From positions 32,001 to 96,000 of the IMG/VR virus record IMGVR_UViG_3300005690_000024: 64,000 bases of DNA. One strand, given 5' to 3'. This document shows positions 23,896 to 44,362 of the stretch, in pieces; the first letter of the stretch is position 1; the number at the start of each line of letters is the position of its first letter. The notes under the pieces were generated by a model. That model saw nothing but the letters and a program-made list of their open reading frames with translations. It did not search any database and was not told where the DNA came from. Made by a program: the position numbers and the translations under genes. Source of the stretch: a virus.

Positions 23896-23951
23896 GATTG
23901 TGCGTATAGGCATTGACGGTGGGAGTGTGGTTGCTATTCTTCGAGGAGTGA

Positions 23952-24257
23952 TTGATGTCCAGGGCGAGCGAAGTTCTTCAGGCAGCGTTTGAATCCGATC
24001 CGAATGCGATGCATGCGTTGGTGGTGAATCGTTATCCGTGCAATCAGGCTTTGGCAGACGATCCGTTTGTGATTGTGGATGTACCACCAGTTCTTGGCGG
24101 GACTCACTTTCAGGTTGGGATGCTTGGCGTGTTGAACGGTGTTCTGGTCGCCAACGGTCTTCCGAAGGTGGCTGTGAAGTGGTCGAACGAGCGAGATGAA
24201 GACGGACAATGCATGGTTCTTGGTTTCTGCGACTACGTGGAACCATCGGCAGAGTAA
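23952..24257 (+). CDS. Hypothetical phage protein
   Basis: 101 aa, GAGGAG RBS, motif copy upstream. Confidence 0.6.
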   Translation: MMSRASEVLQAAFESDPNAMHALVVNRYPCNQALADDPFVIVDVPPVLGGTHFQVGMLGVLNGVLVANGLPKVAVKWSNERDEDGQCMVLGFCDYVEPSAE

Positions 24258-24283
24258 ACGTGGAATTCCGTTCCGCTGTTGCG

Positions 24284-24376
24284 GCGGAACGACTAAAATC
24301 AGCCGGTTTGCGGACGGTTGACTTCCAATTTCAAAGCAGCGTTGCCCGCAAACTCGGCTGCATTTTATTGTTATTT
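24284..24376. mobile_element. attC-type integron recombination site 1
   Basis: GAAC-gac-TAAAAT-CAGCCG-GTTTGCGG...CCGCAAAC-[T]-CGGCTG-[C]-ATTTTA-tt-GTTATTT: imperfect inverted repeat with AAC/GTT cores, an unpaired spacer and two extrahelical bases. Confidence 0.85.
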
Positions 24377-24388
24377 TGCGAGGGTGTA

Positions 24389-24589
24389 ATGGCAGACCCA
24401 AAACACAGCGATGAAATACACAAGAGAAAATTGATAGTTGTAAGGGCAATTCGCGATGGCTGCCCAGATTGCCCCGACGAAGGATTGATGTGCGAAAAGC
24501 ATTTGAGGGAGTTGAGGCCACTGTTCACGCGACCTAGGCAGCGGCTGAAAGCGTTTGAGGATCGGTTGTTTTCGGATCAGTCAAAATAA
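24389..24589 (+). CDS. Cassette ORF A (66 aa, CPDC...CEKH, possibly metal-binding)
   Basis: AGGGTG RBS just after attC1. The TAA stop is part of the AAATAAC core of attC2. Confidence 0.7.
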   Translation: MADPKHSDEIHKRKLIVVRAIRDGCPDCPDEGLMCEKHLRELRPLFTRPRQRLKAFEDRLFSDQSK

Positions 24590-24670
24590 CGCTCGCGATC
24601 AGCGGTGGCCGCGAGAGATTTTGTTAGCAGTGGAGACGTTGACGGCCTCCGCTGCATTGCGTGGTTATTT
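24584..24670. mobile_element. attC-type site 2
   Basis: AAATAAC-gct-CGCGAT-CAGCGG-tGGCCG...CGGCC-t-CCGCTG-[C]-ATTGCG-tg-GTTATTT. Confidence 0.88.
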
Positions 24671-24686
24671 TGCATTGGGGAATGCG

Positions 24687-24911
24687 ATGAAAATTGGACC
24701 AGTGAATTTTGGAAGCCTCAATGCGTGGCGGTACGCATGGAAGATGCGGGGATCGGTTCCGATGGTATACCTTCTGCGAAACAGCAAGGGTGTCATACCT
24801 GGGCGATGGGGCTTCGTCGTTCTCGGCTTTGAGTTCGGCTCTCGCAACTCAGATAGCAAGTTTGGACAGTGGTTGCACCGTGTTGGGCTGTGGCCGTTCA
24901 TGTCAAAATAA
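24687..24911 (+). CDS. Cassette ORF B (74 aa)
   Basis: ATG 17 nt after attC2. The TAA stop lies in the AAATAAC core of attC3. Confidence 0.7.
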   Translation: MKIGPVNFGSLNAWRYAWKMRGSVPMVYLLRNSKGVIPGRWGFVVLGFEFGSRNSDSKFGQWLHRVGLWPFMSK

Positions 24912-25008
24912 CGCTTGGCATAAGCCGGGCGAGTGTCGACGTGGTGTGAGTGTAATTTTCCCGCATGACGACAGAGGTTAACGCCTCGGCTTCATGCCAT
25001 TGTTAGTT
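24906..25008. mobile_element. attC-type site 3
   Basis: AAATAAC-gct-TGGCAT-AAGCCG-GGCG...CGCC-[T]-CGGCTT-[C]-ATGCCA-tt-GTTAGTT. Confidence 0.9.
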
Positions 25009-25021
25009 TGCGAGGGTGATC

Positions 25022-25249
25022 ATGAGCATTCAGTTGAACCGACATCAAGCGGAATTGTTGCTATCGTTTTTTGATAGCGGGGACTTCGATGACGTGGTTT
25101 TAGAGGTTGAGTTTCATGAGGTGGGACCACACGGGCCGGGGCTGTACTGTTGGCATGCTGAGTATCCGGAGGAAGGCAAGTCGTTTTTGCCATCCGTTAG
25201 CGAAGCCGTAAAGCAATGCGAAAAGATAGTTGCTGATACGTCAAACTAA
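25022..25249 (+). CDS. Cassette ORF C (75 aa, acidic)
   Basis: AGGGTG RBS after attC3. Ends in CAAAC-TAA-C, the exact complement of the GTTAGTTTG at the start of the cassette. Confidence 0.7.
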   Translation: MSIQLNRHQAELLLSFFDSGDFDDVVLEVEFHEVGPHGPGLYCWHAEYPEEGKSFLPSVSEAVKQCEKIVADTSN

Positions 25250-25459
25250 CTTGATGGATTACCGAGAAGCCCGAGAGAAGGCGATACAGACCGTTTTGCG
25301 GTTGGTGATCGAGTTACCGTCTCCATTGCGTTCGCTCTTGGATGCTTTGAGGGAGAGGCCACAATTGTTCGGACCGGATACTTGTGTGTCGAGTTCGAGT
25401 GGGAAGGAAAGCCCCGGCGAATCTACATAGCCGAGAGCGATATCGTTTCAGGTCCATAA
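25250..25459 (+). pseudogene. Start-less 3' fragment of an SH3/KOW-like ORF apparently interrupted by the cassette array
   Basis: 69 open codons (LDGLPR...FAVGDRVTVSI...SGP*) with no start codon. In frame with GTG 24260-24289 once 24290-25249 is removed. A competing ATG-25254 frame also exists. Confidence 0.5.
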
Positions 25460-26337: not shown

Positions 26338-26592
26338 AGTGTGGCCACACTTGAAGGTGGTTAAAATCAGGCCAGATAAGTCAGTTGCTGGTGTGTGTAG
26401 TTGCTGAAAACACGGGATTTTATGGGGTTGTTAGTTGTTGTTCTCGCTTTCGTAAAGCGTAGGTCATCGATTCGAATTCGATCGGCGGCTCTTTTTTGAG
26501 AGCCAAAAACACAAGGGAATCAGTGAAAACTGGTTCCCTTTTTTGTTGCGCTGTGTTTGGTAAACTACGCTTCCACACTTGTTCCCACACTT
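26337..26592. mobile_element. attP: core matching the 3' half of tRNA-Thr(CGT) at 26445-26491, plus arm-type repeats
   Basis: CGCT-TTCGTAA-AGCG anticodon arm, ATCGA-TTCGAAT-TCGAT T-arm, then CGGCGGCTC. CCACACTT at 26345, 26573 and 26585; perfect palindrome AAGTGTGGCCACACTT at 26337-26352. Directly upstream of the integrase. Confidence 0.8.
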
Positions 26593-26603
26593 GGAAGCGT
26601 GAA

Positions 26604-27782
26604 ATGGCAGACCGACCAGAGAAACCTTATCCAGACTTCCCGTTGTTTCCACATGCAAAGGGGTACTGGTGCAAGACGATCAAAGGGAAGCAGTGGGCGT
26701 TTGGTCCGTGGGCTGACCCTGATGCGGCGTTGCAGAAGTATCTGGACTGGCGAGACCAGATCATGGCGGGGAGAGACCCGCGTAAGCAGGCTGCTGAGAC
26801 CGCTGTGGGCGTCACGCTGAAGGAACTGTGTAATCTGTTCCTTGTCGCGAAGAAGGGCGCCATGGAGCGGGGAGAGCTTTCTGTGAGGTCATACGCTGAG
26901 TACAGGGGTGAAGCGAAGTGGCTGTGTGACTGCCTGGGGCGCGAGACAGGTGTGGCCACACTGATGCCAGCCGACTTTGCGAAGTTGCGGGCGAGCTATC
27001 CGAAGACGTGGGGCATTGTCACGGTGTGTGGGCACATCACGAAGACGAAGTCGATCTTTCGGTTTGGTTACGAGAATCGGATCATCGAGCGGGAGGTGTC
27101 GTTCGGGTCGGAGTTCGTGAAGCCGACACGGTCACAGTTTCGGAGGAACAGGCAGCAGGCTGAATCAGAGCGGGGGTTGCTGCTGTTCAGCCGGGAAGAG
27201 TTGCTGGTGATCATTGAGAAGGCGGAAGGGTGGCTGAAACCAGCGATCCTGTTGGGCATCCAGGCGGGGTTGGGAAATCGTGATGTCTCGGGGCTGACGG
27301 ACAGGCATGTTGACTTGGAAGGTCGGTGGGTTTCGTACTCGCGCCCGAAGACGGGGGTGTATCGGAGTTTTCCACTGTGGCGAGAGACGGTGGATGCGAT
27401 CGCGGCTTATCGGAAGACTCGGGTTGATGCGAAGCGGGTCGAGGATGGCGGGCTGTGCTTTCTGACTCGGCAGGGCTGTCCGTTGGTCACTGAGATGGTG
27501 CATGCAGACGGGCGGCATATTCAGGTGAACAATCCGACGTTGTCGTTTGCGAAGCTGTTGAAGCGGGAGGGGCTGAAGCGGGCTGACCTGAACTTCTATT
27601 CGCTTAGGAGGACGTTTGAGACGATAGCGGGGCAGTCGAAGGATCAGGTGGCGGTGGACCACATCATGGGTCATGCGGACGACAGCATGGGCGGGGTGTA
27701 TCGGCAGGGGATAGATCGTGAGAGATTGGAGGCAGTTGTACAGCATGTGCATCGGTGGCTATACGGTTCTGGTGAAATTTAG
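26604..27782 (+). CDS. int: Phage tyrosine integrase
   Basis: GLGNRDV (R), RPKTG (K), FYSLRRTF (YxxR in place of HxxR), MGHAD (H), GVY (Y). The N-terminal KPYPDFPLFPHA arm domain is of a type I associate with planctomycete integrases. Confidence 0.93.
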   Translation: MADRPEKPYPDFPLFPHAKGYWCKTIKGKQWAFGPWADPDAALQKYLDWRDQIMAGRDPRKQAAETAVGVTLKELCNLFLVAKKGAMERGELSVRSYAEYRGEAKWLCDCLGRETGVATLMPADFAKLRASYPKTWGIVTVCGHITKTKSIFRFGYENRIIEREVSFGSEFVKPTRSQFRRNRQQAESERGLLLFSREELLVIIEKAEGWLKPAILLGIQAGLGNRDVSGLTDRHVDLEGRWVSYSRPKTGVYRSFPLWRETVDAIAAYRKTRVDAKRVEDGGLCFLTRQGCPLVTEMVHADGRHIQVNNPTLSFAKLLKREGLKRADLNFYSLRRTFETIAGQSKDQVAVDHIMGHADDSMGGVYRQGIDRERLEAVVQHVHRWLYGSGEI

Positions 27783-42017: not shown

Positions 42018-44362
42018 ATGAGTCGTTACGTTGGTATGGCACGGGATATTCACATCGCTCGTGGTGTTCATGCGGCTGCAATAGATTTTGAGCGTAAGAG
42101 TGTGGTCGCAATTTTCCGTGAGCTTGCTGCTACGCTGTCAAAGGATTCAGTCGGCGGAACTGAAACGAGCCTTGCATTCTGCGCGTCAGCATTGGCGATT
42201 CATCGTGTGTGCAATGACATCATGGCTTCTGATTGAGTTCGTTTTAACAAAGCGAGGTGTGTGTGAGCTACAGTATTTCAGATCATGCGGTTTCTCGTTT
42301 TGCCGAGAGGTTCCCCGGCATGGAGATTGAAACAACTCTTGCGGGGGCGGTGCCGTTTGGCGCACAGCGTGGCAACTCGATTTTGCTTTTGAACGGTGAT
42401 GTGGCGTTTTGTGTTCGCGACGGCATTGTTACGACGTGCATGCCGAAAGACATGGCGGTCGTGAACATGCAAGCTCAGGGGCTGGGGTGGGTTCCGTTAA
42501 AGACTGAGTACGAGCAGTCGGTGAAGGTGCAACCAGAGCCTAAGAATTGGGCTGACTTGGATTTTGATCGTCGTATTGGCACTCTTGACAAGGCAACTTT
42601 GAACACCATGTTGAACATGCTGGCCAATGCAACGGCAGACCAGATGGATGTGCTGTGTGAGAGGAACAAGACGAAGCAACTGGCGAGCTATGTTGTGGCG
42701 TTGCGGGATAGGGTTGCGAAGCAGACGGAGCGAGCTGACCAGGAGAGGAAGATGTCTCAGGGGTTGATGCAGTGGATCAAAGAGACGCATGGGAATGAAG
42801 TTGTGGCATCTGTGGTTGATGGGATTCGCAGTGGGGGATGTTTGGTATGAGTCGTCGTCATTTGTTGAAACAGCCGTGGCGTAGTCTTCCGTTGTGGTTG
42901 CTGTTGAGCATCCATGCTGTTGTGGCGTTACCGCTGTTCTTGTCGGTGCATGTGTGGTACGGCATAGTGCGTGGTGTTCGGCGTGCTGTCGAGGAGTTCT
43001 CGCGGGAGCATCAGATCCTTGGGAAGTTGGATCAGGGGGATTCGTAATGGCATCAGTGATTCGCAGGGAGGGCTACACGATCGATAACGGTGGTGTTATT
43101 CGCTACGTCAATGTGGAGTCTTCATACGAAGAGGCTGAATCAATTTGTGGTCGCAGGCTGGACCGTAGGCGCAACTATGCGATCGTCGAGGGGGCGGTGT
43201 GTGAGTCTGCGAGTTGGGTCAGTGCATGCTCTGGATGCTACGAGGGGTACGAGGTTGATCATGGTGTTGGCATGGGTTGTCATGAGTGTGGTTTTCATGG
43301 TCGTGTTCGAACTGGTATGTGGGTTCCGTTGGGTGCGAGTTCGGAGGATGAGTTGTGAACAGGAAAGAGGCGTCAGAAATACGTTCATCGGACGAGTTTC
43401 TGGAATTGCAGGCAAAAGCGAGTGCGGCTTATGACGCCTGCCAGAAAGCTCTGGCTGAGATTAGCCATAAATTCCCGTTGGAAAGCGGGTACACTTGGAC
43501 CCTTATGATGTCAGGCGAAGTTCATTCGAGGTGGTGTGGTCATTGAGAAGAGGAAGAAGAGTTATGAGAGTTTTGGTCAGGGCGTACAACAAGGATGGGT
43601 ATCACAAGGACTTGGCTTCATTTGAGGAGGGGCAAGTTCACATGAAGCATGGGAATATGTCAGAACCGCAGATGATTGCTGTGGGCGTGAATCTCTGTCC
43701 TAGCGATTTCCCAGAGGCCGTTCGGTTCGACATTGTGATTCAGAATCCAGTGTTGCCAATTAGGTGATTCTTCCATCATTTCGAGGTTCAGTTGCGTATA
43801 GGGAGTATGGTAATGTCTAGACTTTAGAATCGTCGGCGAAAGAACGAGCGTCATCGGCGGAATGAGCGTCGTCGGGAGGCGAAGAAACTTCTGAAGCGAT
43901 TTGTGGCGTGTGCCCCAGCGATCGCGGCAAGTATGATTATGAGTAAGGAGTCGTTGTATGCCTGGGGAGCGGGAGTTGAGCGTAGATACAGGTAGTTACG
44001 AGTGGATGCGTGGGCATCTGATTCAGCGACTGAATGATGATGCTGCAGAGGTCGTCGAGAAGCATGATCGTGCTCGCAGGGAGTGTGCGGAGTTTGCACG
44101 TCGAAAGAGGTGGCTCGCTGATCAGGTTGATGTGCTCAATATCAGCCCCGAAGAATGTCGACCGATGCTTTCGTTCGTGCATAAGAAGGAACGTCTTCCG
44201 AAAGAAGGTGAAGACAGTTTCCTGATTGAGCAGGCTAAGGATCTTGTTGATGCGAACTACGAGATCGACAAGTACAACGGTCGCGATGCACGGGCGTTTG
44301 TTGAGGCAGTTTTTGAGCGAATTAGTCCTGAGTTGTATTTGCATTGGCTGGAGCAGAAGTGA
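42018..44362 (+). CDS. Row of hypothetical ORFs (42018-42236, 42257-42850, about 42847-43047, 43047-43358, 43355-43546, about 43564-43767, 43958-44362)
   Basis: Packed + strand ORFs. 42257-42850 has DHAVSRFAER, a motif shared with 57830-58219. Confidence 0.5.

Follow-up and report, generated by a model that had tools for sequence, protein, structure and literature searches.

How could an array of gene cassettes, each with its own attC recombination site, come to lie inside a small gene of a phage in whose record no integron integrase is found? The question is raised by a 64,000-nucleotide stretch of viral DNA (hereafter, the window), which corresponds to bases 32001-96000 of one 120,507-bp IMG/VR record (IMGVR_UViG_3300005690_000024) that is classed as linear and whose completeness is estimated at about 80%. 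A 960-bp insert at window positions 24290-25249 consists of three cassettes with small open reading frames (ORFs) on the plus strand, the canonical top strand of the array being the minus strand, and its bounds are set by the AA|C points of four core sequences. The analysis described here indicates that the cassettes were probably inserted into a small phage gene by an integron integrase (IntI) of the host acting at a secondary, attG-like 5'-G|TT-3' site. The locus is a natural example of two already described processes, the occurrence of attC clusters in phages and the insertion of cassettes at attG sites, and not of a new mechanism.

The window contains three genuine attC hairpins between positions 24284 and 25008, and they are the only ones in the 120.5-kb record. 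The sites were called by their structure. Both strands of the whole genome were scanned for the architecture AAC, 3 nt, 6 bp, 6 bp, loop, 1 nt, 6 bp, 1 nt, 6 bp, 2 nt, GTT, and with G-T pairs permitted four sites with 12/12 pairs were retrieved, i.e., the three sites of the array and one at 42374-42493; the same scan of 20 shuffled genomes gave 0 matches. The match at 42374-42493 reaches 12/12 only through G-T pairs, has no neighbouring sites and is probably due to chance. The three array sites, attC1 (24284-24376, 93 nt), attC2 (24584-24670, 87 nt) and attC3 (24906-25008, 103 nt), all on the plus strand and with the 7-nt cores included in the lengths, have a common format: xAAC, 3 nt, 6 bp, 6 bp, a variable loop, T, 6 bp, C, 6 bp, 2 nt, GTTA. 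When folded as single-stranded DNA, each forms a long imperfect hairpin (z from -2.8 to -4.1, the last value being that of attC2). The L-box arms differ in sequence yet covary (TAAAAT/ATTTTA, CGCGAT/ATTGCG and TGGCAT/ATGCCA), and the sites combine, as attC sites do, a length within 57-141 bp with conserved structure and low sequence conservation. The R-box pattern RYYYAAC...GTTRRRY is represented by AAATAAC/GTTATTT in attC2 and AAATAAC/GTTAGTT in attC3. Since three attC sites are found inside 725 bp and no intI in the record, the locus belongs to the clusters of attC sites lacking integron integrases (CALINs). A search for IntI with TIGR02249 across the 120.5-kb record gave zero matches, and the arrangement of a complete integron, with intI (the gene of a tyrosine recombinase that has the IntI-specific extra domain) beside attI and a cassette promoter, is not present.

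The strand that corresponds to the recombinogenic one can be recognized from the position of the unpaired bases. Nivina 2016 (PMC5027507) stated that recombination of the attC bottom strand falls between A and C of 5'-AAC-3', and that the extrahelical bases of this strand are located opposite the AAC triplet; the first of them is usually G, the last is a T that is conserved, and the spacing is 6 bp. In all three folds, both bulged bases are on the 3' arm of the plus strand, as the original prediction had stated for the ORF-sense strand; a stem of 6 bp lies between the two, which are C16 and T23 when numbered from the 3' core. As a strand reference we used the 60-bp attC downstream of aadA1 of plasmid R100 (In2, class 1; L007:1501-1560), in which intI1, aadA1 and the site are annotated or placed and the top strand is the one that carries the ORF. 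The bottom strand of this site, TAAC GCT TGAGTT AAGCCG ... T CGGCTT G AACGAA TT GTTA, likewise folds with two bulged bases, T and G, in its 3' arm. The sites described here, of which attC3 is the closest to this reference, are in the same register: the core, the 3/2-nt offset, the 6 bp, the bulge, the AAGCCG/CGGCTT stem and the bulged T follow each other in the same way, with the bulges at positions 16 and 23. The differences are that the first bulge is C and not G and that the sites are 87-103 nt long compared to 60, with longer loops, as in chromosomal integrons. The likeness of attC3 to a class 1 attC, which had been part of the original prediction, stands as to register and the C-for-G change; the letters given there for the class 1 site were slightly off. 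Because the extrahelical bases lie opposite the AAC arm and the fold matches that of the aadA1 attC bottom strand, the view that the plus strand corresponds in structure to the recombinogenic bottom strand of attC is supported, C for G being the sole deviation, and the earlier assignment of the ORF-sense strand as the recombinogenic one holds in this structural sense.

The insert can be divided at its AA|C points into cassette A (24290-24589, 300 bp), cassette B (24590-24911, 322 bp) and cassette C (24912-25249, 338 bp), all on the plus strand. As had been noted from the letters alone, the array opens with a site whose left core does not match its right core: over 9-mers, Watson-Crick pairing in attC1 is 4/9 (GCGGAAC versus GTTATTT), compared to 9/9 in attC2 and 8/9 in attC3. 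According to the fold and the scan, attC1 is a terminal hybrid site, its left core GCGGAA coming from the target and the rest from cassette A. The array closes, also as originally described, with a lone core AACTAA|C on the plus strand (25244-25250; G|TTAGTT on the minus strand), which is followed by no hairpin and represents the half of the original attC1 core that remained at the distal junction. If this core is put next to attC1 again, the arrangement of an excised circle, 8/9 instead of 4/9 positions of the core stem are paired. On the minus strand, the order is G|TTAGTT in the target, cassette C with attC3, cassette B with attC2, cassette A with attC1, and G|TTCCGC in the target. Read in this direction, the array is a standard one, in which the opening attC is the terminal hybrid attC and the lone core is the attI-like junction. 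The inferred crossover is canonical, since AA|C of the plus strand and G|TT of the minus strand are the same point. The original prediction had spoken of a reversed cassette polarity, and this is correct for the orientation of the ORFs relative to attC, but not for the AA|C crossover, which is ordinary, or for the minus-strand layout, which is standard. Each attC is located 5' of the ORF of its own cassette, as had been proposed, and the ORFs are on the plus strand, which is also the bottom-strand equivalent of the attC sites; they are therefore antisense to the usual cassette orientation. In R100, in contrast, the ORF is on the top strand and upstream of attC. The GC content of the insert is 50.7%, compared to 52.8% for the genome.

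The array starts and ends exactly at AA|C points. Loot et al. (bioRxiv 10.1101/2022.09.11.507474) described insertion of cassettes by IntI at genomic attG sites that have the consensus GWT and a hotspot motif CRGM. The GTT of the phage target fits the GWT consensus, and the hotspot motif at positions 6-9 is matched at three of four positions (CCGC). As expected of an attG product, the two ends of the insert are, on the minus strand, CCATCAAG|TT and AGTCG|TTCCGC, and excision leaves an open frame. The crossover at 5'-G|WT-3' outside of attI and attC, the hybrid attC core left behind and the hit in a dispensable coding sequence are common to attG insertion and to the locus described here. The latter differs in that the recipient is a phage and not a chromosome, that three cassettes and not one are present, that the match to CRGM is 3/4, and that it is a natural and not an assay product. 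The target also contains a perfect 7-bp inverted repeat (GTTCCGC at 24270-24276 and GCGGAAC at 24284-24290) with the AA|C crossover in its right arm; genome-wide, 0.23% of AAC sites are found within such an inverted repeat.

The following sequence of events would account for this structure. The cassettes would have come in together, in a single circle of three, or in succession, and the folded bottom strand of attC1 in the circular intermediate would have undergone exchange with the double-stranded phage DNA at ...GCGGAA|CTTGATGG... (minus strand, CCATCAAG|TTCCGCCGC). This exchange would have split the original core of attC1, with TTAGTT left at the 25249 junction and the hybrid GCGGAA|C formed at 24284-24290, and would also have split a gene coding for a small beta-barrel protein of 79 aa (96 aa, if ATG 24209 is the start). 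The predicted junction of the empty site is GCGGCGGAA|CTTGATGG and that of the excised circle is CAAACTAA|CGACTAAAAT. The integrase would most likely have come from the host because the phage record does not contain IntI, and lysogeny is a plausible time for the event because the phage carries its own unrelated integrase, which suggests a temperate lifestyle. Which strand recombined, the bottom one, can be told from the structure of the product alone, something that an observation made on sequence only seldom allows.

The same record without IntI may also be explained in a different way: the cassettes may be genuine but have been acquired from a host integron or attC cluster through recombination that is illegitimate or relies on short homology and does not involve IntI, their ends falling at cores by chance or through microhomology. 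Such a route was raised by Qi, Rajabal, Ghaly, Tetu and Gillings 2023 (PMC9892861) for phage attC clusters bordered by inverted GTTRRRY motifs, and the target described here likewise has an inverted GTTCCGC/GCGGAAC pair. This scenario is improbable, however, given that both junctions are exactly at AA|C, that the half-cores rebuild attC1 at 8/9, and that the flanking frame neither gains nor loses bases, a precision that is expected of site-specific exchange. The survey by the same authors reported 17 CALINs in phages, several of which were recombined by IntI1 in assays, and inverted GTT-type motifs at the borders of phage attC clusters. Several attC sites with small ORFs, a phage without IntI and border motifs of the inverted GTT type are shared by those clusters and the present one. 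In this case, the junctions are seen at base level, the interrupted gene is identifiable and all three cassettes have their ORFs on the bottom strand, and these are the points that distinguish the locus. Base-level junctions in an identifiable gene therefore favour an IntI-type exchange at a secondary site over an unspecified mosaic event. Integron integrases were shown in laboratory work to drop cassettes at almost any GWT, the survey of phage attC sites left the route of entry open, and the locus links both. It supports the notion that phages are recipients, and hence possible carriers, of integron cassettes, and direct assays could make use of its three attC sites and its defined 40-bp target.

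The interrupted gene consists of a 5' piece at 24260-24289 on the plus strand, i.e., a GTG and nine codons (VEFRSAVAAE) in a frame that is open back to ATG 24209 as an alternative start, and a 3' piece at 25250-25459 on the same strand, 69 codons long and coding for a small beta-barrel domain. The 3' frame opens exactly at the crossover and has no ATG, GTG or TTG ahead of 25373, in agreement with the earlier remark that it otherwise lacks a start. When the 69-aa frame was compared by phmmer with 1.84 billion representatives, 8 clusters were found, the best with an E-value of 1.3e-14 (58% identity), followed by 7e-12, 8e-12 and weaker ones. Tblastn of these homologues on the phage matched only 25253-25450, with the alignments starting at 25253-25292 and reaching to within one codon of the junction. 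The segment 25250-25459 is, as judged from this conservation, a real coding sequence, and a frame starting at ATG 25254, considered as an alternative, is rejected, the homologues being aligned to the 25250 frame. With homologues for a frame that is cut exactly at the crossover, the claim that the block lies in a phage gene at a non-attI site is borne out. A model of the target protein has four strands with a predicted local distance difference test score (pLDDT) of 80.5, and Foldseek returned only weak matches for it (SH3-like, Sac7d and Tudor; best E-value 0.29). The homologues (P0001-P0008) have a conserved C-terminal beta-barrel of about 55 aa after very different N-termini, among them CxxC zinc ribbons, a conserved VS(N/D)xxxG...RRN basic stretch and unrelated sequences; one member is annotated as YacG/DUF329-like.

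Deletion of the 960 bp at 24290-25249 gives, as was originally proposed, a continuous frame, which is unbroken for 79 codons from GTG 24260 or for 96 codons from ATG 24209. The join is gap-free in the alignment with the homologues (AAE|LDGL versus GGE|CIGL, GDE|PAGL and GDK|PDGL). Against a profile built from the homologues only, the fragment alone scores 84.4 bits and the fused protein 87.2 bits (+2.8). When random 10-mers from the phage were placed ahead of the fragment, 46 of 1000 (4.6%) reached 87.2 bits. That this exact ORF, of 79 or 96 aa, was the one interrupted appears fairly likely. It is conceivable, on the other hand, that 25250-25459 was never joined to 24260-24289 and is instead reached by read-through of the ORF3 TAA or from a non-canonical start, or that its N-terminus was lost in a separate deletion. 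ORF3, the last ORF of the insert, is in the same frame as the fragment with only the TAA between them, the N-termini of the homologues are long and do not resemble the ten-codon piece, and an in-frame join has a prior chance of one in three. Yet ORF3 adds nothing to the profile score (83.6 bits for ORF3 with the fragment versus 84.4 bits for the fragment alone), and the alignment over the join is gap-free and better than that of 95% of random 10-mers. The established mechanism of IntI, the exchange of which leaves the target bases undeleted, also argues against a separate loss, and we regard this alternative as quite improbable. The specific version of it in which ORF3 and the fragment make up one read-through gene was rejected on the profile scores.

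The phage has a site-specific recombinase of its own, a 428-aa tyrosine recombinase at 26496-27782, 1.25 kb downstream of the array, and its position and strand are those expected of intI relative to the canonical (minus-strand) orientation of the array. The only family matches of this protein are generic ones, to Phage_integrase in Pfam and to integrases in PHROG; it has no similarity to IntI1 (E-value above 1), and its identification as IntI was dropped for want of both a TIGR02249 match and IntI1 similarity. It is highly improbable that the hairpins are the phage's own attC look-alikes, serving as substrates of this recombinase or as transcription signals and shuffling small phage genes, for even though the recombinase is located on the expected side and ORF3 has phage-family affinities, the enzyme does not resemble IntI, three ORFs as well as the remainder of the target gene intervene between it and the array, and the hairpins, which are absent from the rest of the 120 kb, match attC position by position including bulges 16 and 23; nor were any terminator-like sites found.

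Several observations weigh against insertion of the cassettes by a host IntI into a ten-codon-plus-fragment gene. The first extrahelical base, which is usually G in attC sites, is C in all three, although G is a tendency and not a defining property, and the recognition and recombination of these sites by any IntI are presumed from their structure. The homologues of the 3' piece have 27-102 varied residues, often a zinc ribbon with a basic stretch, before the best match, and these N-termini have no counterpart elsewhere in the phage according to tblastn, so the ten-codon N-terminus is atypical. The original prediction had named as its own refutation a start of the homologues elsewhere, and this has come about in part, the varied N-termini being longer than ten residues. 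The support for restoration by the ten codons amounts to about 0.05 from the profile test times the one-in-three chance of an in-frame join and is weak. Neither an unoccupied target, nor an intact orthologue, nor synteny in relatives was retrieved. A word-based protein search with the 69-aa fragment, tblastn against GenBank phages and the screening of five remotely related viral records with a profile gave no intact orthologue; the predicted 29-mer of the empty site is absent from viral contigs in an exact search; locus searches among viral and metagenome contigs with P0001, P0011 and alignments yielded neither an empty site nor an orthologue; and the exact 79-aa protein is absent from a collection of 15 billion proteins. 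Two or three near-identical contigs, including those of 120,501 and 120,529 bp, both with ORF1, appear to carry the insertion as well. Neither a donor integron nor further members of the attC family were found: core-based patterns had two matches in species genomes and five in viral contigs, all of them chance matches without attC arms, and blastn of attC3 against plasmids gave no match.

Within the cassettes, every hairpin is followed by a Shine-Dalgarno sequence and then by an ATG. ORF1 (24389-24589, plus strand, 66 aa) has the ribosome-binding site GAGGGTG, and its stop codon TAA makes up the last three bases of the cassette. It has no family match in Pfam, NCBIfam or PHROGs, and its cluster has two members, from contigs of up to 120,529 and 120,501 bp. 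The 5' piece of the target gene reads in frame through attC1 (99 nt without a stop) into ORF1, so that 24260-24589 forms a chimeric ORF of 109 aa; exactly this ORF, from GTG 24260, was predicted by a gene caller on the near-identical 120,501-bp contig (P0037). ORF2 (24687-24911, plus strand, 74 aa) codes for a conserved protein with homologues of 92%, 62% and 60% identity. ORF3 (25022-25249, plus strand, 75 aa), the stop codon TAA of which is inside the lone core, has a homologue of 84% identity and matches an internal domain of PHROG 5217, 6134 and 6628, which are larger phage proteins (293-748 positions), with E-values of about 5e-6; this makes the cargo of at least one cassette phage-type. 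With regard to function, the three ORFs gave nothing in Pfam and NCBIfam, weak function-less PHROG matches for ORF3 only, and sub-threshold leads in the Atlas, and contigs encoding their homologues were sought among viral contigs and not found.

All three ORFs end in TCA AAA TAA or TCA AAC TAA (24581-24590, 24903-24912 and 25241-25250), so that the core supplies the stop codon and the two codons before it. The core-encoded C-termini (MSK and TSN) are kept by close homologues with 84-92% identity, and the final MSK is absent from the ORF2 homologues of 60-62% identity (P0028 and P0029). The 84-92% homologues, with their conserved core-encoded C-terminal residues, show that the plus-strand ORFs are real genes. 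No match to a sigma-70 promoter was found on the ORF strand inside the insert. Each ORF having its own Shine-Dalgarno sequence and the same direction as the neighbouring genes, the three are probably transcribed from an upstream phage promoter as accessory genes (morons), as far as can be judged from their arrangement.

Cassettes with antisense ORFs exist, for example, the toxin-antitoxin cassettes of chromosomal integrons, which have their own promoters. The orientation of the ORF opposite to the canonical direction is common to those cassettes and the ones described here, whereas the present array has three consecutive small ORFs with no sigma-70 match, ribosome-binding sites abutting attC and ends within the core. 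It is possible, but unlikely, that such cassettes form a "mirror" class, in which an ORF on the recombinogenic bottom strand is immediately preceded by attC and the ribosome-binding site and has its stop codon in the core. If this is the case, mirror cassettes would be silent in an integron and would become expressed once in transcribed DNA such as a phage operon, and hosts and phages could trade them via IntI. The phage-family affinity of ORF3 and the kept core-encoded C-termini are compatible with a mirror class and do not show it. One homologue of ORF2 from the 92% class (P0032, 86 aa, from a 978-bp contig) has an N-terminal extension ending in ...VHVFVILLLRFA before MKIG. Back-translation, on which this point depends, suggests that its V-I-L residues would fit an upstream GTTATTTTG core and that an attC may be present ahead of the ORF there too.

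Almost all genes in the window are on the plus strand, and genes for replication proteins (a helicase, a sliding clamp, an exonuclease and a replication initiator) are present. The closest matches of the helicase in cultured phages are 26-27% identical. A gene for a 327-aa protein in the neighbourhood is common to six viral loci, all of which are too distant, with nothing else conserved there. The array itself is set in a run of small ORFs. The Shine-Dalgarno sequence GAGGGTG is present in 25 copies on the plus strand and one on the minus strand. The motif GCGTATAG has a similar strand bias in the whole record, with 27 copies on the plus strand (at 23902 and 26 other positions) and one on the minus strand. 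The copy at 23902 is located 50 bp ahead of the 101-aa gene at 23952-24257 that precedes the array and is a candidate phage promoter.

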